Of a stretch of 41,456 bases of DNA, positions 18,569 through 41,456 are shown piece by piece. Location: contig JAJRZV010000069.1 in assembly GCA_024275095.1 (NCBI GenBank), positions 1 through 41,456 of the forward strand. The letters are read 5' to 3'. The translations under genes and the position numbers were made by a program. The notes beneath the pieces are model-generated. The model was given only the letters and a program-made list of their open reading frames with translations. It did no database searches and was not told where the DNA came from. This DNA comes from a bacterium (GTDB taxonomy: Bacteria; JAJRZV01). Every line of letters starts with the position of its first letter. The stretch's first letter is position 1.

Positions 18569-19000
18569 TTAAAATATTTCCATCTCTTCCAGTGCTTTTT
18601 CCACCGACTGGAGCAGAACGGCAACATCCCCCAGGGAGACTTTCCTGCTGAAACTGACGATCAGCACATCTCGCCCTGTTTCTTCATCGCCTACCGATAC
18701 CCAGCGTTGCTGTGTTTTCTGGAAACCTAGACGTTCCAGGGGCCCACCTATGGTTTCCATTTCGTTCTCAACATGTTTTTCGATTTCGTGATCTGTGTAG
18801 ATATCTTATGTGATTACGGCGTCGCGTTTGTCGTAGGCAACTTCTACAACCATGTTGTCCTGGGTCAGGAAGATCCCCGAGGGAATGCTTCTCCCGTCAG
18901 GCTGCATCTCCCAGAGTTCCACACGATCACCCGAGATAACAGGATGATATTTTGTACCAGTCAATACCCTTTGCAGGGCTTTTGCTAATTCTTCAATCAT
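18569..19000 (-). pseudogene. Hypothetical ~143-codon protein split by one in-frame TAA (18806-18808)
   Basis: ORFs 18806..19000 and 18569..18760 are in the same frame and join as ...KRDAVIT*DIYTDHEIEKHVENEMETIGG... with no other stop. Confidence 0.65.
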
Positions 19001-19007
19001 ACTGTAT

Positions 19008-19037
19008 ACTTTACTTCGTAGATACGGTGGTTATCAA
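19008..19037 (-). promoter_or_regulatory. sigma70-type promoter, probably leaderless
   Basis: Minus strand TTGATA-N18-TAAAGT-N7-ATG(19000). Confidence 0.45.
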
Positions 19038-19064
19038 CGCCCTTTTTACAGGAGGTTACCCAAG

Positions 19065-19280
19065 ATGGCAAGAGTTACTATAGAGGATTGCCTGGAGAAG
19101 CTTAACAACCGTTTTCAGCTGGTGCACCTGGCAGCTCGTCGGGCCAAACAGCTGATAACAGGGGCCCGACCTCTTGTAGAAAACAAGGATAATAATAAAG
19201 AAATTGTACTTTCTCTTAGAGAAATTGCAGCAGGCAAGGTGCTGCCTCGCGAAGAAGAAGACGAAGGGGAAACGTTTTAA
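19065..19280 (+). CDS. rpoZ: RNA polymerase omega subunit
   Basis: [30 protein letters not shown]...ALREIA-like SLREIAAG. Confidence 0.98.
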
Positions 19281-19391
19281 CCTCTTATACCCGCAGGTCC
19301 CGTTTCGCTTTCTGTTGAGTGAAATAAACACAGTTGACACGTATGGGTACGTGCCTGTTTTAAAGTTGTTTTTTGTGGCAATATATCTAAC

Positions 19392-21530
19392 ATGAGACTT
19401 GAAGATGTACTCGAAAAGGTAAGAATGTACCGCAAAGAAGCGGATCTTGATGTAATAAAAAGAGCCTATATTTTTGCGGCACTTCACCACGGAGCGGATA
19501 AAAGACGCTCCGGCGAACCATTTATCGTGCATCCCCTGGAGGTCGCAGGAATTCTTGCTGATATGAAGTGTGATGAGGTTACTGTAGCTACCGGGCTGCT
19601 TCATGATGTCGTGGAAGATACCAGCATCACCACCGAGGACATCAGAAAGTATTTTGGCGATGAAATCGCTTTTCTGGTTGATTCTGTGACGAAAGTAGAA
19701 AGTGTGGCTTTTCAATCCCGCGAGGAAAAACAGGCGGAAGCTATACGCAAGGTGCTTTTGGCCATGGCGCGTGATGTAAGGGTGATTCTGGTTAAGCTTT
19801 CCGACAGACTTCACAACATGCGCACCATTATGTACCTGAACGAGGATAAAAGGCGTGCTGTAGCAGAGGAGACCTTGGAGGTTTATGCGCCTCTGGCTCA
19901 CAGGTTAGGTATTTACTGGCTGAAGACCGAGCTGGAGGACCGGGCTTTCGAGGTGCTCAGACCCGAAGAATACGCAGAAATTTCGAAAAAGATCAATTCA
20001 TTGAAGAAAGAAAAAGAAAAGTATATTCAGGAAATGTGTTCCAGAATTCAGTCCATTTTGAAAAGGGAAGGGATTAAATGTGAAGTGCAGGGACGATTTA
20101 AAAGTCCTTATTCCATTTACAGAAAGATGTTGAGGGATAACCTCACCTTTGAAGAGGTGTACGATGTTATCGCATTTCGGGTGCTTGTGGACACCGTAAG
20201 GGATTGCTATTCGGCTCTCGGGGTCATACACCTGAATTTCAAGCCCATTTTTGAGAGATTTCGTGATTATATCAGCCGTCCCAAACCAAACAATTACAGG
20301 TCACTTCATACCACTGTGGTGGGCGAAGACGGACAGAAAATGGAAATTCAGATCAGGACTTACGAGATGCACCGTGAAGCCGAGGAGGGTGTTGCTGCCC
20401 ACTGGACGTATAAGGAAGGAAAGGGACGCCCTGAAGAATTGCAGATTTATGCATGGTTAAGAAGGCTCCTGGAAATGAGGGAAGGATCAACCGACCCCGT
20501 CCGGTTTGTTTCTGATGTGAAGGAGGAACTCTTTTCTGATCAGGTGTTTGTGTTTACACCCAAAGGAGACGTGGTGGAACTTCCCAGAGGAGCCACACCT
20601 GTAGATTTTGCTTATGCTATTCACACTGAGGTTGGACACAGGTGCATTGGGGCTGAAGTTAACGGCCGCATGGTGCCTCTTGATACCCCGCTGGAGGTGG
20701 GTGATCGTGTGAGAATTATCACCGGAAAGGAACCTAATCCCAAAAAGGCATGGCTCGCCTTTGTAAAAACGGGCCGGGCACGTTCAAAAATCAGGGCATG
20801 GATTAACGCAAAGGAAAGGGAAGGCCTGATCAGGGTTGGTCGCTCCTTGCTTGTTAAAGATTTAAAGAAAAGATTGCGCAAATTTAAAAAGAGCGAGATG
20901 GAAAAGAATATAGAAGAGGTGGCTCATGAAATGGGGTTTAAGGACGTGAGCGGCTTTTACGCAGCCATTGGAGCTGGAAAGATCTCTATTCATACAGTGT
21001 TACATAGATTGTTGCCGAAAGAAGGTGCCGAAGAAGCGGGGGCAAAAGAAAAACAGCCTTCCTTGCGCACTCTTATACAGCGATGGAGTGACGGCAGAAG
21101 CGAAATTATTGTCGACGGCATGACCGACGTGTATGCCAGGTTTGCGAGGTGTTGTAATCCTTTGCCAGGAGAACCCATAGTTGGCCATGTGTCCGTAGGT
21201 AGAGGACTGGTCATTCATTCCGCGCGTTGCAGTCGAATAGAAGCTGTACCAGAGGAGAGATTGGTGCCGGTGCGATGGGGCATTAAGGAAGGCACCCCTC
21301 GCAAAACAAAACTTAAAATTTACTGTGAAGACAGACCAGGTGTGCTTGCTTCTATTTCTCATGCTATTTCCAAGGAAAATATTAATATTTCTGATGTGTC
21401 ATCACGTGCAGTAATGACTGGCAGGGTGCTCATTTCTTTAAGCATAGAGGTTGTTAATTTTCAGCAGTTGAGAAAGATTCTTAAAACTGTAGAGATGACC
21501 AAGGGGGTGTTAAATGTGCAGAGGGTTTGA
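19392..21530 (+). CDS. rel: Bifunctional (p)ppGpp synthetase/hydrolase (long RSH)
   Basis: HD domain LLHDVVEDT, synthetase YRSLHT/EIQIRT, TGS VFTPKG...DFAYAIHT, ARCCNPLPG, C-terminal ACT DRPGVL. Confidence 0.97.
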   Translation: MRLEDVLEKVRMYRKEADLDVIKRAYIFAALHHGADKRRSGEPFIVHPLEVAGILADMKCDEVTVATGLLHDVVEDTSITTEDIRKYFGDEIAFLVDSVTKVESVAFQSREEKQAEAIRKVLLAMARDVRVILVKLSDRLHNMRTIMYLNEDKRRAVAEETLEVYAPLAHRLGIYWLKTELEDRAFEVLRPEEYAEISKKINSLKKEKEKYIQEMCSRIQSILKREGIKCEVQGRFKSPYSIYRKMLRDNLTFEEVYDVIAFRVLVDTVRDCYSALGVIHLNFKPIFERFRDYISRPKPNNYRSLHTTVVGEDGQKMEIQIRTYEMHREAEEGVAAHWTYKEGKGRPEELQIYAWLRRLLEMREGSTDPVRFVSDVKEELFSDQVFVFTPKGDVVELPRGATPVDFAYAIHTEVGHRCIGAEVNGRMVPLDTPLEVGDRVRIITGKEPNPKKAWLAFVKTGRARSKIRAWINAKEREGLIRVGRSLLVKDLKKRLRKFKKSEMEKNIEEVAHEMGFKDVSGFYAAIGAGKISIHTVLHRLLPKEGAEEAGAKEKQPSLRTLIQRWSDGRSEIIVDGMTDVYARFARCCNPLPGEPIVGHVSVGRGLVIHSARCSRIEAVPEERLVPVRWGIKEGTPRKTKLKIYCEDRPGVLASISHAISKENINISDVSSRAVMTGRVLISLSIEVVNFQQLRKILKTVEMTKGVLNVQRV

Positions 21531-21540
21531 CTTAGGAGGT

Positions 21541-21732
21541 TTAAGCAGATTTGGTTACAAGTCCCTTTTTAATACAGGCGGTGCACACTCTCATGCGCCT
21601 CACCTTTCCATTGACGAGAACTCGGATTTTTTTTACATTTGGTCGGAATTTTCTGGATGAGCGCTTGTTAGAATGACTCACACGGTTACCAAACACCACC
21701 GATTTTCCACACACTTCACATCTGTACGCCAT
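21541..21732 (-). CDS. rpmB: 50S ribosomal protein bL28
   Basis: True start ATG 21732 (SD aggagg): MAYRCEVCGKSVVFGNRVSHSNKRSSRKFRPNV...VCTACIK. Both CxxC pairs are present. Confidence 0.97.
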   Translation of the reverse strand: MAYRCEVCGKSVVFGNRVSHSNKRSSRKFRPNVKKIRVLVNGKVRRMRVCTACIKKGLVTKSA

Positions 21733-21757
21733 TTCCAGCCTCCTGAAACTGGGCAGC

Positions 21758-21786
21758 ATGATAAAAGGCATAACTTTTTTTGTCAA
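21758..21786 (-). promoter_or_regulatory. Near-consensus sigma70 promoter of rpmB
   Basis: Minus strand TTGACA-N17-TATCAT. Confidence 0.75.
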
Positions 21787-21796
21787 GGAAGAACGA

Positions 21797-22810
21797 ATGA
21801 ACGGAAGTAAAAAAGTCATTGGTGTGCTTGGTGGTGGTTCGTGGGGCACAGCCCTTGCCCAGCTCGCTGCAAATAATGGTTATCGTGTAATAATGTGGTG
21901 TTATGAACCCGATGTTGCAGAGTCTATCAATAAGAACAAAGAGAACTACCGTTATCATCCTGGAATAAAACTCAGTGATAATATTCATGCGACACTGGAG
22001 GTGGCCGAGGCTGTTGAGGGGATGGAAATTATCGTATCGGCCGTGCCTTCTTTTGCAGTACGAGAAATATGGGATCGGGCCAAAGGGTATGTAAGCGAAA
22101 AGGCCGTTGTTGTGAGTGCGACGAAGGGTATAGAAGAAGACACATTGATGCGCATGAGTGAGGTTATACTTCAGGTCACTGGAGAAAATACGCGTGTTGC
22201 TGTGCTTTCAGGTCCCAGTTTCGCCAAGGAGGTTATCAGAGGCCTGCCGGCTGCTGTGACCGTAGCTTCTTCTCATGAAGATGCTTCTCGGCTCGCGTGC
22301 GAGGTATTTCACTCATCACGCTTCCGTACATATATTCATCACGACGTTGCCGGCGTAGAAATTGGAGGTGCAATTAAAAATGTGATGGCAATAGCTGTGG
22401 GGCTTTCAGACGGTCTGGGTTTTGGACTGAATACGCGTGCTGCATTGATTACACGGGGCCTGCATGAAATCATGCGTCTTGGAGTGAAGATTGGTGCTGA
22501 TCCTGTAACCTTTTCAGGACTTTCAGGTATGGGCGATCTGGTCCTCACAGCCACAGGTGACCTGAGTCGAAACAGGCGTGTGGGGTTGGGGCTTGCCAGG
22601 GGTAAAAAACTTGAACAGGTATTGAAAGAATTGGGGGAAGTGGCAGAAGGGGTAAAAACAGCACCTGTTGCACTGGCTCTGGCATCCAAATACAATGTGG
22701 AAATGCCTATAACCCGAGAGGTAAATGCGATCTTGTTTGAGGGAAAGGACCCGGTTTCTTCTGTGAAGGATTTGATGACAAGAGAAATGAAAACAGAAGT
22801 GTACTGGTAA
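21797..22810 (+). CDS. gpsA: NAD(P)H-dependent glycerol-3-phosphate dehydrogenase
   Basis: GGGSWGTALA, ATKGIE, LSGPSFA, GGAIKNVMAI, GDLVLTATGDLSRN and VAEGV. Start set at ATG 21797. Confidence 0.97.
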   Translation: MNGSKKVIGVLGGGSWGTALAQLAANNGYRVIMWCYEPDVAESINKNKENYRYHPGIKLSDNIHATLEVAEAVEGMEIIVSAVPSFAVREIWDRAKGYVSEKAVVVSATKGIEEDTLMRMSEVILQVTGENTRVAVLSGPSFAKEVIRGLPAAVTVASSHEDASRLACEVFHSSRFRTYIHHDVAGVEIGGAIKNVMAIAVGLSDGLGFGLNTRAALITRGLHEIMRLGVKIGADPVTFSGLSGMGDLVLTATGDLSRNRRVGLGLARGKKLEQVLKELGEVAEGVKTAPVALALASKYNVEMPITREVNAILFEGKDPVSSVKDLMTREMKTEVYW

Positions 22811-22816
22811 GAGAGG

Positions 22817-24286
22817 ATGGAAGGTAAAAAAATCTTGCAGGTGGATACCGGGAGTGAAAACTCCTATCAATTAAGGGAGAAGTGGCTTGAGGTCCTTCCT
22901 CTTGAGGATAAGGATGCCAAACTTTTCGAGCTTGAAATGTTGTTGAGGGGAATGGATCGCTTTTTCAACGTGAGAAATCTTCCTATTGCAGATTTGGAAA
23001 ATGTGGTGCTCAGAAATTTTCACAACGAAATGAAGGTTGTGGTCATGGGGATTGACAGGTGCATTCTTCTGCTCAAGTCACTTTTGCCACCGGAAGATGC
23101 AAATGTATTCAACTTTCAGATGTATCTCGAAAACTCCCTCTTGATAGATTATGCAAGAGATAAGTTTATTCTGAATAACCTGCGCCAGACTCATCCAAGA
23201 GAAAGCCTCTATCTCATGTTGCTGGCTTTTATTAATTTTTCGGTCATTCTCAAAGCCCTTCTTAATCTCAAACATATCTCCTACATGGCTTTTCATCATA
23301 CAGGTCAGATTGTTTCCCGTGAGATCGCCATCAATCGTTTTTTCAATCCGATGGAGATGCCCGCATTTTCTCCCAGATATGACAAGATCACCATTCCCGA
23401 GTTGAAGAAAGCTGTTGCACGCATTAAGAATTCGAAGGTTCGCTCTACTTATTCTATTATTATACTTGCTCTTCTTCGCTCACTCAGGTACCTGGAACAT
23501 GTGAATCCAGACGTCAATTCAAAAGATCATTTAAGATTTTACACACTTATATTTTCGCTTTTGCGTTCAGAGATCGAGTCGCTGGTGAAGTTTATAGAAG
23601 GTGAGGGTGCCAGGAGGATTAAAGAGGCGGGTATCTCTGAAGATGAACGGACTGAGCACCTGGAGCGTTTTGATTCCGTGGCATTTCAGATCGACATCGA
23701 ATCCAAAAAAGTGTACAGGCAGGTGCTCAGGGACATACTTGAGGTGAGCAGCCTTAATCGCCTGCGGAGTATGGTGGAAAGCGCAAAAGGTATTCTCAGA
23801 AACATTCTCGAACAATCGGTGGTGTTGCTTGCCCACGGGCTGGATGAGAACATTGATGGAAGGGTTATTTTTCCTGATTTTATTCCGAGGTTTGAGCAGT
23901 CGGTAAGGCTGCGCGAGGATATTTTTATTTTTATCAAGATTCTCGAGGCGGTGGAAAGGTCGTTAGACGGGGCAAAGGATGCGGAGATACCACGCAGGCG
24001 GATACTCAGTGTAATAAACGATTATATTTCCTACTTTATGAATCTCAGTTTCAATTATGTCAGGTATTCTGATTCGGAAGAGTTCATAGACTTTTTCAAC
24101 TATGTCAGCAGTTTAAAAAAGTCGGACCTCGAAGAAAAGCGAAAGTTCAACGAATTCAGGTTTAAAGTACACGTGTTTAAAACTTTTCTTGAGACCACCT
24201 TGGGTTTGATTAATAACCGTGCGGAACTTTCCGGTGTTCCTATTGATCAGGAACACGCCATGGAAATATACAGGCAATTTCTCTGA
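22817..24286 (+). CDS. All-helical hypothetical protein (489 aa)
   Basis: Long ORF in the operon with gpsA, with an SD. No catalytic motif recognised. Confidence 0.85.
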   Translation: MEGKKILQVDTGSENSYQLREKWLEVLPLEDKDAKLFELEMLLRGMDRFFNVRNLPIADLENVVLRNFHNEMKVVVMGIDRCILLLKSLLPPEDANVFNFQMYLENSLLIDYARDKFILNNLRQTHPRESLYLMLLAFINFSVILKALLNLKHISYMAFHHTGQIVSREIAINRFFNPMEMPAFSPRYDKITIPELKKAVARIKNSKVRSTYSIIILALLRSLRYLEHVNPDVNSKDHLRFYTLIFSLLRSEIESLVKFIEGEGARRIKEAGISEDERTEHLERFDSVAFQIDIESKKVYRQVLRDILEVSSLNRLRSMVESAKGILRNILEQSVVLLAHGLDENIDGRVIFPDFIPRFEQSVRLREDIFIFIKILEAVERSLDGAKDAEIPRRRILSVINDYISYFMNLSFNYVRYSDSEEFIDFFNYVSSLKKSDLEEKRKFNEFRFKVHVFKTFLETTLGLINNRAELSGVPIDQEHAMEIYRQFL

Positions 24287-24355
24287 ACTGCGAAGGGTGC
24301 GTCACTGCCTGCAGTCCAATCGGTACTTGCGGATACGTTTTCTGGATGTTCACTT

Positions 24356-27300
24356 ATGATTGATGTCATCGCTGTAAAAGTCGGCGCTATTGTTGAGAGG
24401 TTGCTTCAAAACAAAACTGTCCTTGTCGTTTCTGATGAAAACAACTCAACGTTGTTTTTTGAGTCACTGCAATGCCTGACTGATTGCATATATTGTTTTT
24501 ACGGCGACTCTTTTCTCAGAGACGTGTTGCGCTGGTATGAAACAGAAGAAAAAGAGGGAGCCGTAATTGTTACCACACAGGATGTGCTTCGGAGGGGGCT
24601 TCCAACCCGGGCGGCCCTGAAAAAGGAGTCACTTACAATTCGCCGGAATCAACACGGGGTGCGTCAGCCTCTTGTGGATTTTCTTATTGCTCAGGGATAC
24701 TTTCGTGTCCCGGTGGTTGAATCGCCGGGCGAATTTGCAGTAAGAGGCCTGGTTGTGGATGTGTTTCCCCGGGGCGAGATGCAACCTGTGCGCGTGCAAT
24801 TTTCCGGTGGACGTGTTGATAGGTTGGGATTTTTTGACCCTGTGACTCAAAGAACAGAAAACGAAATTTTTTGCTACTCATTTGTTGCAGAGCACGCACC
24901 TCGGTTTCGTTACGTGCCTTTTCTTTCGGTCATGCCATCTGATTTTGAACTTCTGGTGGATGAATGCATCAGCTTGCTTCATGATGGCGCTGGCTCATTG
25001 GTGCCTGAATCTATAAATTACAGAGTACTTTCTCCTTTATCTGAAGTTTGCAGCAACAGCGCAGCTGGGGAGGCACGCCTGGAAGAGTTCATCAGTTACC
25101 TTAAACGTTCTTCGAGGCGCTTTTTCTCGTCCATGAAATCATTTATCAACGAACGGCTTGAAAAAGGATGGACTGTGGTTTTTGCATGTCCCAATCCTTT
25201 CCATTTAGAAAGATTTTATGAGGAGTTTCTTAATGTTGGATTGAGTCCCGTGATCTGGAAGGCGAATCTTTCTCAACTGGTACAGGGGAGAAAAACAAAA
25301 AAAGCGGGAAAGTTGTATATGGTGGTGGCTCCCGGTGCTCCATGCCTGGACCTTGAAAGTGTCCAGTTTTCCATAATCACTGCTTCGAGAATATTCGGCA
25401 CAAGAGGAGCAGAGAAAAAGAGAACAGCTCCTCAGGCCCATTCACTGAGGGATATTGTCAGAGGTGATTTTGTGGTGCATAGAGATTATGGAATCGGGAG
25501 GTTTGAAGGTATTGTCCAGGAGACTGTAAGAGGGGTGACAAAGGAGTTTTTGAAAATTGTCTACGCGGGAGGAGATCGTCTGTTTTGTCCTGTTGAGAAT
25601 ATGCATCTGGTACACAAATACCTCTCACCTTCAGGGAAAGAGCCGCATCTGGACAAACTGGGGGGACGTGCATGGCAGATCCGTAAACGGAAAGTGCGGA
25701 TGGCCGTGGAGAAGGTTGCACACGAGCTTCTGGAAATATATGCGAAAAAGGAAACGGCACGACCCATCAAGTTTTCTCGACCGGGAGAATTGTACGAAGA
25801 GTTTGAAAAAACATTTCCTTATGAAGAGACGGAGTCACAACATAAAGCAATTGAAGAGGTAATAAACGATCTTACTTCCGAATATATAACCGACCGCTTG
25901 ATTTGTGGAGATGTGGGTTTTGGCAAGACCGAGGTTGCACTCAGGGCGGCTTTTAAAGCTGTGGAAGACGGATTTCAGGTGTTGCTTCTTGCACCGACCA
26001 CACTTCTTGTGCATCAGCACTACAGGATATTTTCCGAGAGATTGAAGTAATTTCCCGTGATTGTAAGGTCATATAGCCGACTTGTACCCAAAAAAGAACG
26101 TGACACTATTTTACAGGAGCTCCTCAGGGGAGAGGTGGACATCCTTATAGCGACCCACGCTGTGATTACAGAAAAGGTCAGGTTCAAAAATCTTGGGTTG
26201 CTGATTATAGATGAAGAACATCGCTTTGGAGTGCGGCACAAAGAGTACTTTCGCAAGATGAGGGAGAATGTGGAGGTGCTTTCGCTCAGTGCAACCCCCA
26301 TACCACGTACACTTTACATGGCACTGGCAGGAATTAAACAAATGAGCATTATTGATACCCCGCCACCCGATAGAAAAGCGGTAAAAACCTACATTGTGGA
26401 GTATTCTGAAAGTCTTGTAAAAGAAGCCATTGAACGTGAAATTGAACGCGGAGGGCAGGTTTTTTTTATTCATAACAGGGCCCGTGAGATTGATTTTTAC
26501 GTAAGAAAAATTCGTTCACTTGTTCCTGAAGTCAGGGTTATAGGAGCACATGGTCAGTTGCGCCCCCGTGAACTTGAAAATCGTATTATCGCGTTTGTGT
26601 CGGGAAGCGCGGACGTCCTGGTTTCCACCAACATCGTGGAGGCCGGACTCGATATGCCGCGTGTGAATACCATTATCATTAATAACGCTCATTCGTTCGG
26701 ACTCGCAGATCTCTACCAACTGCGGGGAAGGGTTGGCAGGTCCCCTGTTCAAGCCTATGCGTACCTGCTTTTGCCTCCAGGGTTTACTGTAAGTGAGGAA
26801 GCGAAGAAAAGACTGCTTGCCATGAAACGATTTGTAGAGCCAGGGTCTGGGTACCGCATGGCTCTCGAAGATCTTGAGATAAGAGGTGCAGGAACCCTGC
26901 TGGGAAAGCACCAGTCAGGCAAGATGGAAGAGGTGGGTATTGATTTTTACCTTGAGGCGTTGAGGCATGCTGTGCTGCAAAAGCGGGGGAGGCCGGAGGA
27001 GCCTGCTGGTCATATGTGTTGCGTCAGGGTCCTTGCTGAGGCCCGGATCCCTCGATGGTACATAGCAGAAGAAGAGGTGAGGCTGAAGGTGTACAGACGC
27101 CTTTCACGCATAGAGTCGGAAGAGGATGTAGACGAGATTTTTCAGGAAGTCCGCGATATATTTGGACCTCCTCCATCAGAGGTGGAGTTTCTCTTTCAGG
27201 TGATGAAGTTTAAATTGCGAATGACATTGCTGGGGGCTGAAAATGTGGAAGAACAGCAACCAGGCCACTTTAAGGTGTCTCTCCGAGAGGGCTGGATTTT

Positions 27301-27364
27301 TGTGAAAAAAGACATTGATATGAAAGGGGTTGTGGTGGATATCAAAATGAGGGGTGTGCCGTGA
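24356..27364 (+). pseudogene. mfd: Transcription-repair coupling factor, interrupted by one in-frame TAA at 26048-26050
   Basis: UvrB-homology GEFAVRG, CarD-like VVHRDYGIGRF, Walker A GDVGFGKT, then ERLK*FPVIV, DEEHRFG, SATPIPRTL, QLRGRVGR, DLEIRGAG and a TRCF domain. Both ORFs are in one frame (1002 codons joined). Confidence 0.92.
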
Positions 27365-27457
27365 TAAAATGCCATAGGGTTGAAAACGTCGGCGAGGTTT
27401 TTTCCATGGTTGAGCAGGTAATGAAAGAAATTGCAAGACCTAAGGAGGTACGGGTTG

Positions 27458-28354
27458 ATGAATAAAAGAGCAACGTTCCTTGTTTTGATGACTTTCCTCT
27501 GGGTTGCAGGCGGGTGCACTCATAAAAGACCACAGGGCCGTGTGATTGCAAGAATTGACGGTGAAGTATTCACCATTGACGATTTGCGTGCGGAACTCTC
27601 TTTGCTCAAACCCAGAGAATTGAAAGCCCTTGGTGCGAACGCGCAGAGAAGGCTTCACTTTATGGAAGGCCTGATTGAACGATGGAAAATGTATGCGGCG
27701 GCCAAAAAGGAAGGGATTGACCAGCTTCCTGAAATGAGAGCTCTGGTGCGAGCATATGAGACACGTCTTCTTCAGAGAAAGTACCTGGAGCAGAAAGTTC
27801 CTTCAGTAAAGGTCGGATTTAAAGATGTAAAAGCCTATTACGACAAGATCAAAGACGAACGTTACCTGAGCAGGGGAATGGTAAGGGTCAGGCGGATCGT
27901 GGTGAAGACGAAGAAAGAGGCGGACGAGGTTCTCAAGGCACTGAAGAGAGGGGAAGATTTTGGCAAACTGGCGGGTGAATATAATACCATCCCTCGCCTC
28001 AAGGCAAAAAAGGGGGATCTGGGTTATCTTGGCCGCGGGGTACTGCCTCCGGAGGTGCAAAAAGTTGTTGATAAAATGAACAAAACACTGGAGGTGGCCG
28101 GCCCTATTAAGACCCGCGAAGGGTATGAGTTTGTACAATATATAGATCGTATAAAAAGGGCCTATGTGCCACTTGAAAAGGTTTACAACGACCTTGTTGA
28201 AGAAGTGAGTGCCAACAGGCGAGCTCAGGCGTACAAAAAGCTGAAAGAGGAGATAGAAAAAAAGTTGAAGGTTGAGGTAAAAGAATCTTTGATTAACGAG
28301 TTTATAAAGAAACAGGCGGGTAAAATTAGAGTAAAAGCACGTACCAACAAATGA
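27458..28354 (+). CDS. PpiC-type PPIase/foldase lipoprotein
   Basis: SD aaggagg; lipobox VAGGC; GEDFGKLA...KGDLGYL parvulin motifs. Confidence 0.85.
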   Translation: MNKRATFLVLMTFLWVAGGCTHKRPQGRVIARIDGEVFTIDDLRAELSLLKPRELKALGANAQRRLHFMEGLIERWKMYAAAKKEGIDQLPEMRALVRAYETRLLQRKYLEQKVPSVKVGFKDVKAYYDKIKDERYLSRGMVRVRRIVVKTKKEADEVLKALKRGEDFGKLAGEYNTIPRLKAKKGDLGYLGRGVLPPEVQKVVDKMNKTLEVAGPIKTREGYEFVQYIDRIKRAYVPLEKVYNDLVEEVSANRRAQAYKKLKEEIEKKLKVEVKESLINEFIKKQAGKIRVKARTNK

Positions 28355-30242: not shown

Positions 30243-30255
30243 AAGGAGGTTGACA

Positions 30256-34148: not shown

Positions 34149-34154
34149 GTTTTT

Positions 34155-35546
34155 GTGATTCTGTCGAGGTCAAATGTGAAAGCCCACAGGATATTTGCAA
34201 AAGTGAAAAGCTTTGTTTTAAGAGAAGGTCTTATCCGCGAAGGGGATGCAATTATCGCAGCTGTCTCAGGTGGTCCAGATAGCGTGGCCATGCTGGATAT
34301 GCTTTTGCGTCTTAGAAGACATATCCCCTTTTCAGTGACTGTTGCTCACTATAATCATCGAGTGAGGGGGGCTGAAAGTGATCGTGACGAAACCTTTGTG
34401 AGGGAACTCGCCAGGCGGGAAGGACTTGATTTTGTTTTTGCACGGCGGAAAGCTTCTAAAAAGATGAAGACCTCGGAGTCCGAGTTGCGGAAGGCACGTT
34501 ATCGGTTCCTTCTTCAACTGGCTGACCAGATGGAGGCGAAAATCGCACTCGCCCACCACCGTAATGACCAGGTAGAAACAGTCCTTATGCGCATTTTTAG
34601 GGGTACGGGAGTAAAGGGACTACCTGCAATGCGTCCTGTTTCCGGGCCTCTCATCAGACCGCTTCTGTGTTTGTGGAGATACGAAATAGAGGATTATGTG
34701 CATGAAAGAAGATTGGAATACGTTGATGACGTAACCAACAGAGATGAGCGTATTCCCCGCAATTTCCTCCGGCTCAGGGTTATCCCCATGGTGGAAAAGA
34801 TGTTTCCGGGAGCGTCGGACGCGGTATTGCGACTTGCAGAAAGTGCTTACGAGGACACGCTTTTTCTCGAAGCTCTTGCCAGACGCTTTATTTCCCATGC
34901 TTCGCTTCAAAAAGAAACAGCAGTGTATTCACTCGATGAGTTGCGATCCCTTCCTGTAGCTCTCAGAAAGCGTCTTATTCGTATCACTGTAGAAACAATA
35001 ACAGGTAATGTACCTTCGTGGAAATTTGTGGATCAGGTGGAAAATATTGTGTTCTCCACCGAGGCTGTTGAGTCAAAAGGGAGTGGTGTTTATGTGTACA
35101 GGGAAGGTCATTATTTGGTGATTACGCGGGGAAGAAAAAATCGAAAGGTTGTGTACCGTTACATGGTTGAAAATCCTGGCACTACACTCCAGATCGTGGA
35201 AACAGGCGTTGAAATTACTTTTGAAGAAGAAACAGGACCTGCGGTCGCTTTTGACAGGACCTGTGAAGCAGTCGTTGACATGGACAAAATTGTTTTCCCG
35301 TTGTGTATCAGAACCTGGAAAGCGGGTGATCGGTTTCTACCTTTTGGAGGCCCGGGGCAGGTTAAACTCAAAGAATTTTTTGTGGCGGAGGGAGTACCGT
35401 CACACCTTCGACATTATTATCCTGTTGTTGAAGATGCACGTGGAGAGATTATCTGGATTGCTCCGTTGAGGATTGGCCAGAAGGTTGCTGTTTCTGCAAC
35501 AACAAGGCGGATATTGAAAATGTGTATTAAAATACCTGGAGATTGA
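34155..35546 (+). CDS. tilS: tRNA(Ile)-lysidine synthetase
   Basis: AVSGGPDS PP-loop, AHHRNDQVET, IRPLL, RNFLR and a C-terminal TilS_C domain. Confidence 0.97.
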   Translation: MILSRSNVKAHRIFAKVKSFVLREGLIREGDAIIAAVSGGPDSVAMLDMLLRLRRHIPFSVTVAHYNHRVRGAESDRDETFVRELARREGLDFVFARRKASKKMKTSESELRKARYRFLLQLADQMEAKIALAHHRNDQVETVLMRIFRGTGVKGLPAMRPVSGPLIRPLLCLWRYEIEDYVHERRLEYVDDVTNRDERIPRNFLRLRVIPMVEKMFPGASDAVLRLAESAYEDTLFLEALARRFISHASLQKETAVYSLDELRSLPVALRKRLIRITVETITGNVPSWKFVDQVENIVFSTEAVESKGSGVYVYREGHYLVITRGRKNRKVVYRYMVENPGTTLQIVETGVEITFEEETGPAVAFDRTCEAVVDMDKIVFPLCIRTWKAGDRFLPFGGPGQVKLKEFFVAEGVPSHLRHYYPVVEDARGEIIWIAPLRIGQKVAVSATTRRILKMCIKIPGD

Positions 35547-35689
35547 AAAATTATTAATATGCACAAGTGAATATTTTGGTAAAACTTGAAATCGCAGCAG
35601 GTATTAGTTTCAGGATTTTTTGACGTTGTACTTTATGAAAGTTTAGGATTATGTGGGAGTAAAAAAGTTCTCAGTGATGGAGGGGAATA

Positions 35690-36541
35690 ATGAAGAAAGT
35701 AGCAATACTTGGTGCAGGTACCATGGGCAGTGGCATCGGATATGATGTCGCTCGTTCAGGATATTTGGCCAGCCTTTTCGATGTATCCGGGGCAGTGCTG
35801 GAAAAAGCGCGTTCTTATCACGAAGGTCTGCTGAAACGTGCTGTGGAAAAGGGTCGGATGAGCGAAGGGGATGCCTCTGACACGAGATCACGTCTTTCCT
35901 ATACCACCAGTGAAAAGGAATGTCTTGAAGGCGCGGATATAGTGATAGAAGCTGTACCTGAGAATCTGGAGTTGAAAAAGGAAGTGTTCGGTAAGATAGA
36001 AGAACTTGCGCCGGATCATGCAATTCTGGGAACAAATACCAGTTCCCTTTCCATTACCGGTATTGCTTCAGAGCTGAAGAATCCGGAACGCGTTGTGGGT
36101 ATTCACTTTTTCAATCCCGTGCCTGTAATGAAGCTCGTTGAAATAGTGAAAGGCCTCACCACTTCTCAGGATACGGTAGCAAAGGCTGTAGAGTTCGCAC
36201 GGTCGCTGGGTAAGACCACAGTTGTGGTGAATGATAGCCCTGGTTTTGTTACTACGCGGATTGGGCTTGTGCTCATTGCCGAGGGTATCCGTGTGTATGA
36301 AGCCGGCGTTGCTTCGATGGAAGATATAGACACCGCCATGAAACTCGGCTACAACATGCCCATGGGACCGTTTGAGCTGGCAGATCTCATCGGTCTTGAT
36401 GTGGTTTATAACGTTCTCAAGGCCATATATGCAGAGCTGGGAGATCCGCGTTACGCGCCTCCTTTTACTCTCAAGAAATATGTAACAGCGGGAAAACTGG
36501 GACGTAAAACAGGCGAAGGTTTTTACAGGTACGAAAAGTAA
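35690..36541 (+). CDS. 3-hydroxybutyryl/3-hydroxyacyl-CoA dehydrogenase
   Basis: GAGTMGSGI, IEAVPE, TNTSSLSI, GIHFFNPVP, PMGPFELADLIGLD and LGRKTGEGFY. Confidence 0.95.
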   Translation: MKKVAILGAGTMGSGIGYDVARSGYLASLFDVSGAVLEKARSYHEGLLKRAVEKGRMSEGDASDTRSRLSYTTSEKECLEGADIVIEAVPENLELKKEVFGKIEELAPDHAILGTNTSSLSITGIASELKNPERVVGIHFFNPVPVMKLVEIVKGLTTSQDTVAKAVEFARSLGKTTVVVNDSPGFVTTRIGLVLIAEGIRVYEAGVASMEDIDTAMKLGYNMPMGPFELADLIGLDVVYNVLKAIYAELGDPRYAPPFTLKKYVTAGKLGRKTGEGFYRYEK

Positions 36542-36558
36542 TTCTGGAGGTCCATCAG

Positions 36559-37350
36559 GTGCAGGATGTTCTTTACGAGAAAAAAGGCTACGGCGGTTGG
36601 ATTATTATTAACCGGCCGGAAAGGCGAAATGCTTTCCGCTATCAGACAGTGATGGAGCTGAGAGATGCTTTGCGCATTGCCATAAGTGATAATGAAGTGG
36701 CTGCAGTTGTCATCACGGGTGCAGGGGGTGAGGCTTTTTGTGCCGGTGGTGATATCGAGGAAATGAAGGAATTTGATGCCCGGGCTGCCCGTGATTTTCT
36801 TTTTAATTTTGCACATTTGCTCTTCGAGATACGCACAGCTCCCAAGGTGGTGATTGCAGCAATAAATGGATATTGCCTTGGCGGGGGTAATGAAATTAAC
36901 CTCGCATGTGACCTTTCTGTCGCAACAGAAGGTTCTGTGTTTGGACAGACCGGCCCTGCTGTCGGTGCCTCACCCGTAATGGGCGGTCCTCAACTTTTAC
37001 CTTTTATCGTGGGTGACAAAAAGGCGCGGGAAATTATGTTTCTCTGTTACAAATACTCTGCCCGTGAGGCCGAGAAAATGGGATGGATTAACAGGGTTGT
37101 TCCCGATGGGGCCCTGGAGAACGCGGTGACGGAATGGGTTGAACAAATTGCACGTTTGAGTCCACAGGCACTCAGAATTGCAAAGGAAACACTTAACCTT
37201 TCAAATGACCGTTTTTTTTCTTCACTTTTGCATGCAGCAGAAGTTTTGGCGTTAACATACGAAAGTGATGAATTTCAAGAAGGCATGAGGGCGTTTCTTG
37301 AAAAACGGCACCCGCACTTCAGAAAGAGCCCTGCATGTGATAAAAATTAA
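36559..37350 (+). CDS. Crotonase-superfamily enzyme (MenB/BadI/Oah-like subgroup)
   Basis: INRPERRNA, AFCAGGD, GYCLGGGNEI and FGQTGPAVG. Confidence 0.88.
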   Translation: MQDVLYEKKGYGGWIIINRPERRNAFRYQTVMELRDALRIAISDNEVAAVVITGAGGEAFCAGGDIEEMKEFDARAARDFLFNFAHLLFEIRTAPKVVIAAINGYCLGGGNEINLACDLSVATEGSVFGQTGPAVGASPVMGGPQLLPFIVGDKKAREIMFLCYKYSAREAEKMGWINRVVPDGALENAVTEWVEQIARLSPQALRIAKETLNLSNDRFFSSLLHAAEVLALTYESDEFQEGMRAFLEKRHPHFRKSPACDKN

Positions 37351-37365
37351 GAAAGGGAGGCCGGC

Positions 37366-37746
37366 ATGAACCTTGAACAAACCTTAAAAGCTTTGCTGGA
37401 GAAGGTTCAGAGCATTTCCCGCTCTGAAACCGTTGTGGGTGAACCGAGGCAAATAGGAGAGGCCACGCTTGTGCCTATTTCGCGACTACGCGTGGGTTTT
37501 GCAGTGGGTACTCACGACCGAGGCCAATCAGAAGCAAAAGGGAAGGCCGAGGGCGGTGTGACAGGTGGGGGAATCCTTGTGGACCCTGTGGCCATTCTTT
37601 ACATTAACAAAGAAGGTCAGGCTCAACTGTTCTTGCTGGCCAAGGAGGGTACTCCCGTGCTTGCTCGTATTATAGATCTTATTCCTGATGCTGTTGACCG
37701 CATCATTGGCAGGAAAAAAGAGGAAGAGGGGAAGCAAAAGGATTGA
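37366..37746 (+). CDS. GerW/YtfJ family protein
   Basis: ETVVGEP...TLVPISRLRVGFAVG...GGVTGGGILVDPVAIL. Confidence 0.85.
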   Translation: MNLEQTLKALLEKVQSISRSETVVGEPRQIGEATLVPISRLRVGFAVGTHDRGQSEAKGKAEGGVTGGGILVDPVAILYINKEGQAQLFLLAKEGTPVLARIIDLIPDAVDRIIGRKKEEEGKQKD

Positions 37747-38582
37747 TTCCGGCTTTTTCAACCCATTTCTTTGTATACGCTCCGCTCAGCGTAAACCATC
37801 TTCGTATGCTTGTTAAACACGGGTTTTCGTATGTTGAACTGTGGTGTGCGGAGGGACATATTCACTTTGCTCCGCAGTCATGGAGGGAACTGAAAAGATG
37901 GTGTGCAGACTGCGGGGTTCAGGTAAAAGCAGGGCATGGTCCTTTTTACGATCGGGTAACGCAGGATCCTTCTCTTCGTCGTGTTTTCCATCTTTCGGAC
38001 GAAGGGTCTTCCGGCCGGGAGGCCATGGACTGGACTCGTCGCGCTCTTGAGTTTTTGAGTGAGTTACAGGCAGAAATAATGGTCATACACACAGGATTCC
38101 ACAAGGGTGACCTGTTCGTGCGCATGGATCGCCTGGCAGAACGTGTAAGAACAATACTCGATGAATGGGATATTAGTCTTGCATTTGAAACTGAACCCCA
38201 TACTTACTGCAGTGCATCCGTAATGACCACGTTCATTGAGACGTATCTGGATGCGCACCCCAGGGCAGGAATATGCCTGGACCTGGGCCATGCGAATGTG
38301 TACGGTGGTGTGATGGAAGAGCTGAAGAGCGCGACGAAACGGCTTCTGTACGTGCACGCATCCGATAATTCAGGAACAGCCGATGCCCATCTGGTTCCTG
38401 GAGAAGGAAATATTTCCTGGAGCAGGGTTCTTGAGGAGCTCGAAAAGAGAAAAACTCCCCTTCAGTATTTTACACTTGAGATAAGAGACCATACGCGTGG
38501 AAAGGCCACATTCAGTGAACTGGAAAATGTAATAGAGCAGTGTGCCAGGTGGAGAGATGAACACAGACGTTATTTCTCGTGA
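37743..38582 (+). CDS. Sugar phosphate isomerase/epimerase family TIM barrel (AP_endonuc_2)
   Basis: LAFETE, CLDLGHAN, HASDN...DAHLVPGEGNISW and TLEI. Confidence 0.88.
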   Translation: MIPAFSTHFFVYAPLSVNHLRMLVKHGFSYVELWCAEGHIHFAPQSWRELKRWCADCGVQVKAGHGPFYDRVTQDPSLRRVFHLSDEGSSGREAMDWTRRALEFLSELQAEIMVIHTGFHKGDLFVRMDRLAERVRTILDEWDISLAFETEPHTYCSASVMTTFIETYLDAHPRAGICLDLGHANVYGGVMEELKSATKRLLYVHASDNSGTADAHLVPGEGNISWSRVLEELEKRKTPLQYFTLEIRDHTRGKATFSELENVIEQCARWRDEHRRYFS

Positions 38583-39627
38583 GACTATTGAAAAATCCCT
38601 GAAAGAACATACGCATTTCTCTGCGTCCCTTCAGAAAGTGATTCTTCTCAAAGGTGATGCTTCTACACGCAGCTATGCGCGCCTTACGCTCGTAAATGGC
38701 ACGAGCCTTGTGGCCATGATTCTGGGTAATCCTGAGAAGGCAATTGTTCCAGAAGAATTTGTTGAAGCGCAGGCTTCCTTTTCTGAACTTCCTTTTATCA
38801 ATATACACCGGTATCTTCAAAGAGCTGGTGTGCGGGTTCCGGAGATATACGGATACGATCGGAAAAAAGGTATCCTGTATCTCGAAGATTTTGGTGATCA
38901 ACTGCTCGAAGGTGTGGTTCACAGAGTCGGACATTTTCCTGTGGAACTTTATCAGTGTGCTATTGACGAAATGGTAAAAATGCAGGCGTTCAGCCTGGAG
39001 CATAAAGACAGAAGCTGTTACGCATTTCGTCTTGCTTTTACAGAGGGTGTGTTTTTCTGGGAGTTTGATCACTTTGTCGAATACTGCGTGGAAAAAGAAT
39101 TTCGCCTTCCCCTTTCACGCGGAGAAAAAAGCAGCATGCTGGATTTGTTCAGAGCGGCTTCTCAAACCCTCGCAAAACATTCACGTGTGTTCACCCACCG
39201 GGATTTTCACAGTCGAAACCTTATGGTTCTTTCGGACAGATGCATTGGTGTTCTGGACTTCCAGGATGCAGTCACCGGACCCGTTTTTTATGACCTCGCG
39301 TCACTGCTCCGGGATGCTTATGTGGAAGTGCCAGAGGAGATGGAGGACAAACTACTCGCGTATTACAGTGAAAGTGCAGTTTCCTATCTCACTGGAGCTG
39401 AAATGGAAGATTTTCAATATCTATTCGAACTGAGTGCCTTGCAACGTGATCTTAAAGCAGCGGGCAGGTTTTGCTATATTAAGCTGAAAAAACACAACCC
39501 TGCGTTCATGGTGCATGTTCCTCCTGCGCTGAGAAAAGCAGTAAGAGCTGCCCGCTGTCTTGAGAAAATGAGTTCGGAATGGAAAATAATCTTAGAGGTG
39601 GTAGAGAAACTTCTGGCGAGCATGTGA
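38557..39627 (+). CDS. APH-family phosphotransferase, AmgK-like (MurNAc/GlcNAc anomeric kinase)
   Basis: LKGDASTRSYAR, YLEDFGD, HRDFHSRNLM, LDFQDA...YDLASLLRDAY and QRDLKAAGRF. Confidence 0.88.
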   Translation: MNTDVISRETIEKSLKEHTHFSASLQKVILLKGDASTRSYARLTLVNGTSLVAMILGNPEKAIVPEEFVEAQASFSELPFINIHRYLQRAGVRVPEIYGYDRKKGILYLEDFGDQLLEGVVHRVGHFPVELYQCAIDEMVKMQAFSLEHKDRSCYAFRLAFTEGVFFWEFDHFVEYCVEKEFRLPLSRGEKSSMLDLFRAASQTLAKHSRVFTHRDFHSRNLMVLSDRCIGVLDFQDAVTGPVFYDLASLLRDAYVEVPEEMEDKLLAYYSESAVSYLTGAEMEDFQYLFELSALQRDLKAAGRFCYIKLKKHNPAFMVHVPPALRKAVRAARCLEKMSSEWKIILEVVEKLLASM

Positions 39628-40700
39628 TGCCTGCCCAGGAAAAGAATTTAGTATGGGTGATGGAGCGCGTGCCTTCCGAACGTTTCCCCTATCGTCTGAC
39701 AATCCAGACTGAGGCCGGTAGAGTGATACTTGCTCTGCGTGTGCAGGATCGGTGGCCCGGTTCCAGAGGAAACATTTTTTGCATCCGAGACGAGGGCAGG
39801 AGTGGCCTTCCAGAACCCTTGGAAGAGGTCGAACGTGTCCCCGTAGTCTCGTTCAAACGATACGGCCACCGTGTTTCGGTGGTGCTTCAACGTGCTTCGT
39901 GTCGGAAGTGTGATTTTTTGTTTTTAAAAAAGTCGTATAAGACAAAAAGCGGATTTTATGAACAAATATTCTGGCAGACGGAACAGGCTCTGCGTGAGAG
40001 GCGTCCCCGGGTGAAACTCAGCATCAGGGGGTCTCCTGCACTGGAAATATTGATTGATAGAAACGAGCGTTATCCATGGCGTTTCCCGGGTTGCCGTGTT
40101 GAAAGGGAGTCTCTTCCTGCTGGAGATTATGCACTTCTCGGTAACGGAGTGATCCAGGCTGTGGTGGAGCGCAAGACATACTCTGATTTACTGGCTGCCT
40201 TTGGTATTCTTCCATCCTTTCATCAACGGCTTAACGAAATGGAGTCCTACCCACGGGCAGCTCTCGTAATTGAGGCACACTACGCGGATTTTCTGAACCC
40301 CTCACGCAATCGCTTTTACAGCATTTCTTTTACCACCCAGGCCATTGCCGAAATTTACGCACTGCACCCACACCTTCAAGTTGTATTTGCTGGTAATCGG
40401 AAACTTGCCAATTAATGGACATTAAACTATTTTCAAAAGGTTCTTGCGCGCTTGCAGGAGTCAGCACGGATGCCTGCTGTTGCTGAAGAGATGCTGGAGC
40501 ACTCGATTGAAAGGTCGCAACCCCTTCACTGGAAGGAAATTGAAAGAAGTCTCAAGAACAGCACGCTGGAATGTTTTACATTGAGGGATTTGATGGAACA
40601 TTTCGTCGATGCTTCTGAAAAAAGTATCCGGAAGGCTCTGAATTCTCTCAAAAAGCAGGGCATCGTGGAATGTACAGGCCGCGGTCGTGGTGCAAAATAG
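39627..40700 (+). pseudogene. ERCC4/XPF-domain nuclease with C-terminal winged-helix-like domain, split by an in-frame TAA at 40413-40415
   Basis: ILIDRNERYPW, LPAGDY and VVERKT (GDXnERK ERCC4 motif). The frame continues as RKLAN*WTLNYFQKV... into FTLRDL...SIRKALNSLKKQGIVECTGRGRG. Confidence 0.82.
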
Positions 40701-40707
40701 GTGAAGG

Positions 40708-41456
40708 TTACTTGATGCGTGCCAGGACTTTATGCCCTTTTTTTAAATTCAACGTTATCCGGGCATTTCCCTGATTAACGGAAATTTCGAGCAGTCCTCT
40801 GCTACCCGGAAGTGCAAGGGGTGTACCGGGAGGGACACTGGCATAGCATTTTCCGACCTGAATTGTGTTCGGGAGTGTTTCTACTTCAACCTTTTCAAAA
40901 CGCTCATCCCATTCAATATTGGTAACGGCATTGCCGAAGCGGTCAAAAAAGAGAATTTCACCTTCCCAACCATTTTCTGCAGGTCGAGGTTTTGGAATGG
41001 ATAGTTTTGTAAATGGGGGTGCACAGGGTATTCCCAGTCCGTTGAGTGGGGTCCCTGATGCTATGTGTGCACCAACCGGTGCAAATACATCCCGGCCGTG
41101 GAAAGTACTGGATATTGGATGGAGTAAATGTTGTGATGTGTAATCGATTTCTCGGATTTCTTCTGCATCATCCAGTGCGAACGAAAACACCCCGTTGTCT
41201 GGCCCTACAAACACATGTTCCATATACCGTACGATAAGTCCACGTCGCTGTGTGCCGACTCCCGGGTCAACCACACAAATGTGTACAGTTCCTGGAGGGT
41301 AAAAACGCCATGAAGTTTGAAGGAGAAATTGAGCATGAAGTATGTCTCCTGGTTCAATCATGTGGGAAATATCAACGATTGTAGCTTCTGGAGAGATTGA
41401 AAGAATAATTCCTTTCATCGCACCCACATATTCATCCTGAAGCCCGAAATCAGTAA
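40708..41456 (-). CDS. SAM hydroxide adenosyltransferase (DUF62, chlorinase/fluorinase family), 5'-truncated by the window edge
   Basis: The frame is open to the window end (TDFGLQDEYVGAMKG). Motifs VVDPGVGT, GPDNG, STFHGRDVFAP, DRFGNAVTN and LEISVNQG. Confidence 0.95.
   Translation of the reverse strand, partial: TDFGLQDEYVGAMKGIILSISPEATIVDISHMIEPGDILHAQFLLQTSWRFYPPGTVHICVVDPGVGTQRRGLIVRYMEHVFVGPDNGVFSFALDDAEEIREIDYTSQHLLHPISSTFHGRDVFAPVGAHIASGTPLNGLGIPCAPPFTKLSIPKPRPAENGWEGEILFFDRFGNAVTNIEWDERFEKVEVETLPNTIQVGKCYASVPPGTPLALPGSRGLLEISVNQGNARITLNLKKGHKVLARIK

Follow-up and report, generated by a model that had tools for sequence, protein, structure and literature searches.

In-frame TAA codons in three genes of a draft bacterial genome: probable base-level noise in a metagenome assembly

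Three genes with a single in-frame TAA

The window, that is the whole stretch of 41,456 nucleotides of bacterial DNA that was analysed, exhibits three genes each containing one in-frame TAA codon. The genes and the codons are as follows:

18569..19000, minus strand: small gene, function not assigned, 143 codons with one internal TAA
18806..18808, minus strand: in-frame TAA in the small gene, codon 65, aligned with Glu in the sole homologue
24356..27364, plus strand: mfd (transcription-repair coupling factor), 1002 codons with one internal TAA
26048..26050, plus strand: in-frame TAA in mfd, codon 565, seen in the sequence; the homologue column is variable
39579..40700, plus strand: ERCC4-domain nuclease gene, 373 codons with one internal TAA
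40413..40415, plus strand: in-frame TAA in the ERCC4-like gene, codon 279; the homologue column is mostly Glu

The positions and frames of these codons, first described in a first-pass annotation of the window, are borne out by our analysis. Their contexts are ERLK*FPV in mfd, KLAN*WT in the ERCC4-like gene and AVIT*DIY in the small gene, the +4 bases after the three codons are T, T and G, and each gene stays in frame past its TAA with no second internal stop. TAA also acts as a genuine terminator in the window: 14 of the 30 main ORFs close with it, among them the one finishing at 1385-87 and leuS.

The ERCC4 domain of the nuclease (residues 169-282) covers the stop at residue 279. The 119 homologues, about 355 aa long, are uninterrupted across this position and exhibit glutamate in 107 cases, glutamine in six and alanine in six, followed by an invariant tryptophan. 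The shortened product of this very contig (278 aa, P0121) is present in the database, on one contig only. A putative GAA>TAA change is thus well supported for this gene by the aligned sequences.

The two halves of the small gene share one frame in which each scores as coding, with positive codon log-odds of 0.22 and 0.24 compared with 0.22 for gpsA. No Pfam family was matched and a word-based homologue search returned nothing, but a full HMMER scan identified one homologue of 139 aa (P0243, E-value = 9e-17) aligned over residues 8-143, on both sides of the stop. With glutamate at the stop position of this one homologue, a GAA>TAA change is supported as the predicted origin of the codon.

For mfd, six Pfam domains (UvrB_inter, CarD_TRCF_RID, DEAD, ResIII, Helicase_C and TRCF) are present on either side of the stop, which lies inside the DEAD domain (residues 493-653). 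An Mfd match is found in all 31 genomes compared, and the internal stop occurs in the copy of this genome only. The stop column is highly variable among 120 homologues (G43 A21 S11 D10 P10 N7 K7 E6 R4 Q1), with asparagine in the nearest relative. A metagenome scan for close relatives by means of Mfd yielded none among 80 loci, the best match having 48% identity. The suggestion that all three codons derive from GAA accordingly holds well for the ERCC4-like gene and, by its sole homologue, for the small gene (glutamate at the stop column in two of the three genes); mfd gives it no specific support.

Single stops and frameshifts across the genome

Premature stops were sought genome-wide by homology to two distant reference genomes (G020, and 1.07 of the 2.25 Mb of G028). 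All 30 "relatives" among the species genomes are related at the level of "same domain" only, and the present genome is the only species representative of its phylum-level lineage among the genomes compared. A strict screen against G020 returned 20 stops (14 TAA, 3 TAG, 3 TGA), reduced to 13 TAA, 3 TAG and 1 TGA by the removal of three antisense-frame matches. The union of the relaxed screens against G020 and the 1.07 Mb of G028 held 17 TAA, 5 TAG and 7 TGA. On visual inspection five of these TGA were judged to lie at alignment edges, at gaps or in antisense matches and were discarded; a TAA in rplU was added separately. The final tally of single in-frame stops in conserved genes is 18 TAA, 5 TAG and 2 TGA, about 25 sites in roughly 1000 screened genes. 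Premature stops at this density affect about 2% of conserved genes and occur roughly once in every 38 kb of the coding sequence covered, with one lesion per affected gene.

The affected genes include prfB, valS, trmD, efp, accD, dnaE, rplU and the gene of a hydrogenase small subunit. A SufB-like gene carries one internal TGA, and an HhH-GPD glycosylase gene other than mutY itself carries a TAA. The prfB gene retains the canonical CTT TGA C site of the programmed +1 shift, and is therefore regarded as a working gene, yet it exhibits a TAA at about codon 105. Strong alignments also revealed four out-of-frame junctions, in argS and in NtrC-like regulator, OadA/Pyc-like and AcrB-like genes, each of which we read as the probable loss of one A from a run of A.

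The same filters were applied to both reference genomes as controls. Of the 11 stops in the strict control, 10 fell in alignments containing at least two, and none was a single TAA; the relaxed control gave 4 and 3 stops, every one at a gap or an alignment end; the frameshift control gave one weak case and none, respectively. Three internal TAA codons in 41 kb are thus unremarkable for this genome (the probability of three or more at a mean of 1.0 is 0.08) and exceptional against the two reference genomes, with no comparable TAA stop. Inspection by eye of 23 sites revealed no shared context or downstream motif. Thirteen of 22 sites lie less than 5 kb from a contig end, against 45% expected (P = 0.13). 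Two other approaches, de novo counting of open frames bounded by stops and screening by codon log-odds with a start and Shine-Dalgarno filter, were too noisy and were not used for the verdict; true gene junctions, such as that at 22808-10, were flagged.

Termination and decoding

Homology-anchored ends of 556 genes indicate TGA as the main terminator (316 genes), followed by TAA (202 genes, 36%) and TAG (38 genes), at 48% G+C. No excess of back-up stops follows TAA in these genes; nearby stops are in fact fewer than after TGA. A tRNA with a UUA anticodon was found neither among the 45 tRNAs predicted by ARAGORN nor among 43 hits to Rfam RF00005, in a genome that is 97% complete and in which its absence is not proven: tRNA-Asn, tRNA-Ile and tRNA-Ala(UGC) are missing from the same assembly. 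Apparent "tta" anticodons among 1201 ARAGORN hits at a very low threshold were treated as noise. Inspected by eye, RF1 exhibits its PVT and GGQ motifs, and RF2, of which prfB is the sole gene found, exhibits SPF and GGQ in addition to the programmed shift site.

The residues aligned with the stops differ from gene to gene. Glutamate is the commonest, being conserved in the hydrogenase (4/4) as in the ERCC4-like gene; the column holds glutamine in rplU (5/5), aspartate in valS (3/3), A, A, V, A, A in trmD, and D, D, S, S in a methylthiotransferase. TAA as a regular sense codon was rejected on these grounds: it is still a frequent terminator, no UUA tRNA was found, the release factors are normal and the residues are mixed. 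Selenocysteine insertion depends on TGA and a SECIS element, and pyrrolysine insertion on TAG and the pyl genes; the three codons in the window are TAA. A new genetic code is also argued against by the scatter of TAG and TGA stops and of one-base deletions, even in indispensable genes. The pattern named beforehand in the first-pass annotation as speaking against recoding was in part recovered, all three stop codons occurring at mixed residues; the lesions extend, however, beyond dispensable genes.

Partial read-through of UAA and UAG, by an ochre-type suppressor tRNA inserting Glu or Gln or by weak termination, appears very unlikely. It would account for the excess of TAA and TAG (23 of the 25 stops, the UUA-anticodon suppressor being specific for these two codons), for the otherwise intact state of the essential genes with stops, for glutamate as the most frequent aligned residue and for the preference of TGA over TAA as terminator. 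A suppressor could be absent from the assembly, as at least three tRNA genes are, and the lineage has no sequenced relatives. It is nevertheless hard to reconcile with the failure of the ARAGORN and Rfam searches, with termination by TAA at more than a third of the anchored genes and so few back-up stops, with the usual motifs of RF1 and RF2, and with the lack of a common sequence context. No single inserted residue would suit both the invariant glutamine of rplU and the A/V column of trmD, and read-through rescues neither the SufB-like TGA nor the four frameshifts, including that of argS, which point to a general source of lesions. In its stronger form, a lineage without sequenced relatives reading UAA and UAG through even in prfB, valS, trmD and rplU, with UGA as the dependable stop, the proposal is slightly less probable still. 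Two genome-wide code screens, where they deal with prokaryote assemblies, ascribe UAA/UAG sense readings to contamination.

Mutation spectrum and assembly signature

Among the codons that a single substitution can turn into a stop, GAA is the most frequent in this genome (51.8 per 1000). A pure G>T/C>A model predicts TAA, TAG and TGA in the proportions 55:25:20, and is not rejected by the 18:5:2 observed (P = 0.06). The share of TAA (18/25) exceeds the predictions of uniform or overlap-derived spectra (P = 0.0007 to 0.003). TGA (2/25) is scarcer than predicted by every mutation model (P = 0.04 to 0.09; 0.09 under G>T only), a deficit that also counts in favour of read-through. Coding-strand C>A should yield about one quarter of the G>T-class stops, and Ser, Tyr or Cys stands at few of the stop columns. 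G>T at a Glu codon does not explain the columns of rplU (Q) and trmD (A/V). Like the shares of TAA and TGA, these deviations count against the noise explanation.

Most contig ends exhibit an exact overlap of 141 bases (100% identity) with another end, which is the mark of short-read de Bruijn assembly. Eighteen longer overlaps between contig ends contain 1-4 mismatches, 13 of the 39 mismatches belonging to the G:C<->T:A class. Contigs of de Bruijn assemblies are built from words found in the reads, a point in favour of real alleles; such an assembler normally retains only words present in reads, usually more than once, which speaks against noise. From the stop count we estimate roughly 2-5 errors in 10,000 bases, which is high for an assembly of this type.

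The lesions could also be real: nonsense mutations, mostly of the G:C>T:A type, in a lineage that lacks protection by Fpg and MutY from oxidised guanine. The three genes of the window would then be recent pseudogenes or null alleles still segregating, and nothing would rescue them in translation. We consider this unlikely, though far from negligible. No match to fpg was found in the genome, mutY gives no full-scoring match (best 164 bits for a cut-off of 286), and the glycosylase gene with a TAA would fit the same deficiency, so that a genuine G>T mutational bias of the organism is also possible. The variant branches at contig ends can be taken as population diversity, and the three window genes are ones that we take to be dispensable in model bacteria. 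However, lesions are also found in valS, trmD, argS and prfB, the latter encoding the only RF2 found in a genome where TGA ends most of the anchored genes. Null alleles of these four genes cannot be in the majority in a living population, which argues against real alleles. In addition, a second lesion is absent from all three window genes, and typical spontaneous spectra would be expected to contain relatively more frameshifts than 4 against about 25 stops. Pseudogene formation by nonsense mutation was rejected as a general cause, efp and accD being affected as well and the genes exhibiting no further decay. The first-pass annotation had ranked an artefact or recent pseudogenisation above recoding; recoding is indeed disfavoured, but pseudogenisation does not survive as the general explanation.

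Base-level noise as the preferred explanation

The stops are probably base-level noise in a draft metagenome assembly, mostly G>T at GAA. Several kinds of lesion occur in genes of any importance, and they are nearly absent from the two reference genomes under the same screen, as would be expected of assembly or sequencing errors. Judging from the assembled sequence, an artefact of sequencing or assembly with dominant G>T, rather than a change in the cell, is most likely. The three TAA codons of the window would be single-base lesions of the deposited draft sequence, part of a low, assembly-wide base noise accompanied by rare one-base deletions in A-runs, and most lesions across the genome would be G>T changes at GAA (Glu) codons. 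Their most likely source would be read or library errors, arising for example from guanine oxidation or from PCR amplification of damaged templates, that entered the contigs where read redundancy was low. The genetic code of the organism would then be the standard one, and all three interrupted genes of the window would be intact in the cell.

Comparison with known systems and significance

Draft metagenome-assembled genomes likewise exhibit isolated single-base lesions in otherwise intact genes regardless of essentiality, with all three stop types and homopolymer deletions, here together with the 141-base end overlaps. The lesion density and the dominance of TAA are above the expectation for such an assembly. 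Stop codons are reassigned in bacteria from UGA to Trp or Gly (NCBI tables 4 and 25), and UAA/UAG are read as Glu in peritrich ciliates (table 30). Those systems resemble the present one in exhibiting in-frame stops in conserved and essential genes, often at Glu positions; here, in contrast, TAA is a frequent terminator, no cognate tRNA is found, both release factors are intact, the aligned residues do not agree and the sites number about 25. Ochre suppressors of E. coli, in which a tRNA with a UUA anticodon reads UAA and UAG, are laboratory mutants and not a lineage-wide trait. The resemblance lies in the presence of TAA and TAG with very little TGA; the difference is that no such tRNA gene was found here.

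Costello et al. (2013, PMC3616734) deal with G>T / C>A artefacts that oxidative damage causes during library preparation. The dominant change suggested here, G>T converting GAA/GAG into TAA/TAG, is alike. Artefacts of that kind reportedly appear as low-fraction calls in deep data and with a preference for sequence context, whereas the changes considered here stand in the consensus and exhibit no such preference.

If the lesions are noise, read-level polishing is needed before gene content or genetic code is interpreted for this organism; without it, annotation would treat about 2% of the conserved genes as disrupted. If they were real and read through, the lineage would decode UAA/UAG in a bacterium, a case not noted in those parts of the two genome-wide code screens that bear on the question, and bacteria would thereby gain their first example of naturally occurring ochre-type suppression or of ambiguous decoding of UAA.

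Three genes of the window interrupted by TAA

The window is an entire contig (C32) of genome G000 (2.45 Mb in 136 contigs, 97% complete). Re-reading of its sequence places three TAA codons in frame, each where the first-pass annotation had located it:

24356..27364, plus strand: mfd, TAA at 26048-50
39579..40700, plus strand: ERCC4-like gene, TAA at 40413-15
18569..19000, minus strand: small gene, TAA at 18806-08

In mfd, Pfam domains flank the stop on both sides and the DEAD domain crosses it. The ERCC4 domain of the second gene spans its stop, and 119 homologues about 355 residues long run on past this point. The small gene shows coding signal in both halves, in the same frame, and one 139-residue homologue covers both (E-value = 9e-17; full HMMER scan, 1.84 billion representatives). 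The annotation had called all three stops explicable as GAA to TAA changes. Homologue columns support glutamate in two of these cases: the ERCC4-like stop column, adjoining an invariant Trp, contains Glu in 107 of the 119 homologues (Gln in 6, Ala in 6), and the single homologue of the small gene also has Glu. The proposal is not specifically supported for mfd, where the column is variable (G43, A21, S11, D10, P10, N7, K7, E6, R4, Q1; n = 120) and Asn occupies it in the nearest relative (63% identity). That TAA ends other genes of the window, as also stated there, is confirmed by 14 of the 30 main ORFs.

The 63%-identical relative is the nearest Mfd among 5.8 billion proteins; a metagenome scan gave nothing above 48%, and the 30 nearest species genomes are all related at the "same domain" level only. 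The lineage seems to be without sequenced relatives.

The ERCC4-domain protein (39579-40700) belongs to a widespread family, with about 95 residues beyond the nuclease domain; where named, members are "ERCC4 domain-containing" or "hypothetical", and metagenome genomes of thermophiles and anaerobes are among the sources that are named. A 489-codon ORF between gpsA and mfd (22817-24286, plus strand) matched no Pfam family. A 281-codon ORF without family (19056-19901, minus strand) overlaps the start of an opposite-strand RelA/SpoT gene and may not be a gene.

Genome-wide screen

The three stops belong with other single-base lesions that are thinly scattered over the whole of this draft short-read assembly. 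Open frames of at least 100 residues from two distant references, G020 (complete, 1.54 Mb) and G028 (a 1.07 Mb portion), were run by tblastn against the whole G000 genome, an alignment being removed if a better one in another frame overlapped it. With G020, requiring at least 20 residues and at least 5 identities on either side of the stop yielded 20 stops (14 TAA, 3 TAG, 3 TGA). Three were dropped as antisense-frame matches: two belonged to an alignment on C18 that holds three stops, and the third, on C60, was judged by eye. This left 13 TAA, 3 TAG and 1 TGA. Under relaxed filters, the union over both references was 17 TAA, 5 TAG (including C43:3282, not closely inspected) and 7 TGA. Five of these TGA were rejected on visual inspection as lying next to a gap or a frameshift, at an alignment edge or in antisense matches. 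With rplU, whose stop is nine residues from the start of the alignment and was confirmed by PDB alignments, the total is 18 TAA, 5 TAG and 2 TGA. Three further TAA lie beyond the screen; two are those of the ERCC4-like and small genes, and the third is in a C22 gene for an HhH-GPD glycosylase. Genes hit include prfB, valS, trmD, efp, accD, dnaE, rplU, lon, accC, proB, the NiFe hydrogenase small subunit gene and a SufB-like gene.

The identical procedure, now targeting the two reference genomes, gave 11 stops under the strict filter, 10 in alignments holding at least two stops and the other a TAG in a transposase-like frame; no single TAA appeared in either genome. Relaxed filters gave 4 and 3, every one of them at a gap or at the end of an alignment. 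Four strong out-of-frame alignment junctions were also found in G000, against one weak junction and none in the controls. Judged from the sequence, each reads as the loss of one A from an A-run, in the following conserved genes:

C132, about 7911: argS
C108, about 16703: NtrC-like regulator
C127, about 7960: OadA/Pyc-like gene
C96, about 24105-24168: AcrB-like gene

Decoding of TAA

The annotation had ranked recoding last among its options, and the genome-wide counts agree. Gene ends could be anchored by the C-terminus of a homologue in 556 cases: 316 are TGA, 202 TAA and 38 TAG. A second in-frame stop follows within 10 codons at 35% of TAA ends versus 46% of TGA ends, thus giving no sign of back-up stops behind TAA. 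The UUA-anticodon tRNA sought under the recoding option was found neither among 45 ARAGORN tRNAs nor among 43 Rfam tRNA-model hits in this 97%-complete genome. By the same two methods tRNA-Asn, tRNA-Ile and tRNA-Ala(UGC) are absent from the assembly. Two ARAGORN "tRNA-Pro" calls, agg and ggg (C69:12653-12728, 14846-14930), were missed by the Rfam model, and tRNA-Gln(ttg) is listed twice because the ends of C24 and C121 are the same 141-base overlap.

Both release factors are present with their usual motifs (PVT and GGQ in RF1, SPF and GGQ in RF2). The prfB gene (locus L172) has a canonical CTT TGA C +1 shift site with a Shine-Dalgarno-like run upstream (C21, about 8400-8470), and, roughly 80 codons after this site, an in-frame TAA (C21 8711-8713). 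A true null allele here is hard to accept, since RF2 is the sole factor for TGA, the commonest terminator.

Residues at stop columns in homologues
Hydrogenase small subunit: E (4/4)
rplU: Q (5/5 solved structures, also G020)
trmD: A, A, V, A, A; I in G020
Methylthiotransferase: D, D, S, S
valS: D (3/3)
efp: E, S, S, K, M

Tabulated genome-wide against homologues, the stops are of all three types with mixed residues; even at conserved columns the residue varies from gene to gene, and no common sequence context was seen across 23 sites. Terminator use, the tRNA search, the release factors, the mixed residues and this lack of context jointly speak against a uniform sense reading of TAA. In the parts drawn on here, the Codetta screen (PMC8629427) and a 2026 preprint (10.64898/2026.04.02.715157) put UAA/UAG sense predictions in prokaryote assemblies down to contamination or pseudogenes, and those parts make no mention of bacterial UAA reassignment.

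Excess of TAA

Among codons one step from a stop, GAA is the commonest (51.8 per 1000; AAA 35.7, GAG 28.5, GGA 24.3, CAA 6.8).

Expected TAA:TAG:TGA and P(TAA >= 18 of 25)
G>T/C>A only: 55:25:20; 0.06
Uniform: 41:36:23; 0.002
End-overlap differences, two versions: 38:38:24 to 43:34:23; 0.0007 to 0.003

By these values G>T at Glu codons must dominate if the TAA excess is to be explained; other changes also occur, as in rplU and trmD. TGA is scarce (2/25; P = 0.04 to 0.09 across models). We cannot fully account for the leftover TAA bias and TGA scarcity, taken as one feature. Ochre-type suppression reads UAA and UAG, not UGA, and this match in codon range sustains a small probability for it. Read-through or suppression is nevertheless a long shot, given that no UUA-anticodon tRNA was found, that the residues are mixed and that RF1 and RF2 are present.

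Origin of the lesions

In a self-comparison, most contig ends share exactly 141 bases, at 100% identity, with another end. This is the trace of a de Bruijn-graph assembler at its largest word size, 141 being the usual upper value of MEGAHIT. Since the ends are mostly paired, the assembly graph could be walked and contigs joined; window 41316-41456, for instance, is identical to C111:24831-24971 in reverse. Eighteen longer overlaps carry 1-4 mismatches each. The differences comprise 20 transitions, 13 G:C<->T:A, 3 G:C<->C:G, 3 A:T<->T:A and one indel of A. The data therefore contain variant paths in which G:C<->T:A differences are frequent. "Mercy" k-mers rescue low-depth stretches from single reads. 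In the methods of one paper, as far as drawn on here, this MEGAHIT option was disabled "to increase specificity".

The stops could instead be real nonsense alleles, an explanation that we rank second and consider rather improbable. The whole genome gave no match to fpg (MutM) and none to mutY above the family cut-off, the best reaching 164 bits against 286 in a 232-codon HhH-GPD frame. HhH-GPD regions lie at:

C121:1802-2410
C22:4260-4856, the gene on C22 having its own in-frame TAA

The organism may accordingly have a genuine mutational bias towards G>T. Such a bias would agree with real alleles but would leave null alleles in essential genes unexplained. The involvement of essential genes, and of frameshifts, shifts the interpretation away from young pseudogenes and towards sequence noise. 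Oxidative G>T artefacts are described as arising in library preparation (PMC3616734, in the part drawn on here). We infer that read or library errors, which would be carried into contigs as scattered single-base lesions, are the most likely cause of the in-frame stops of this genome.
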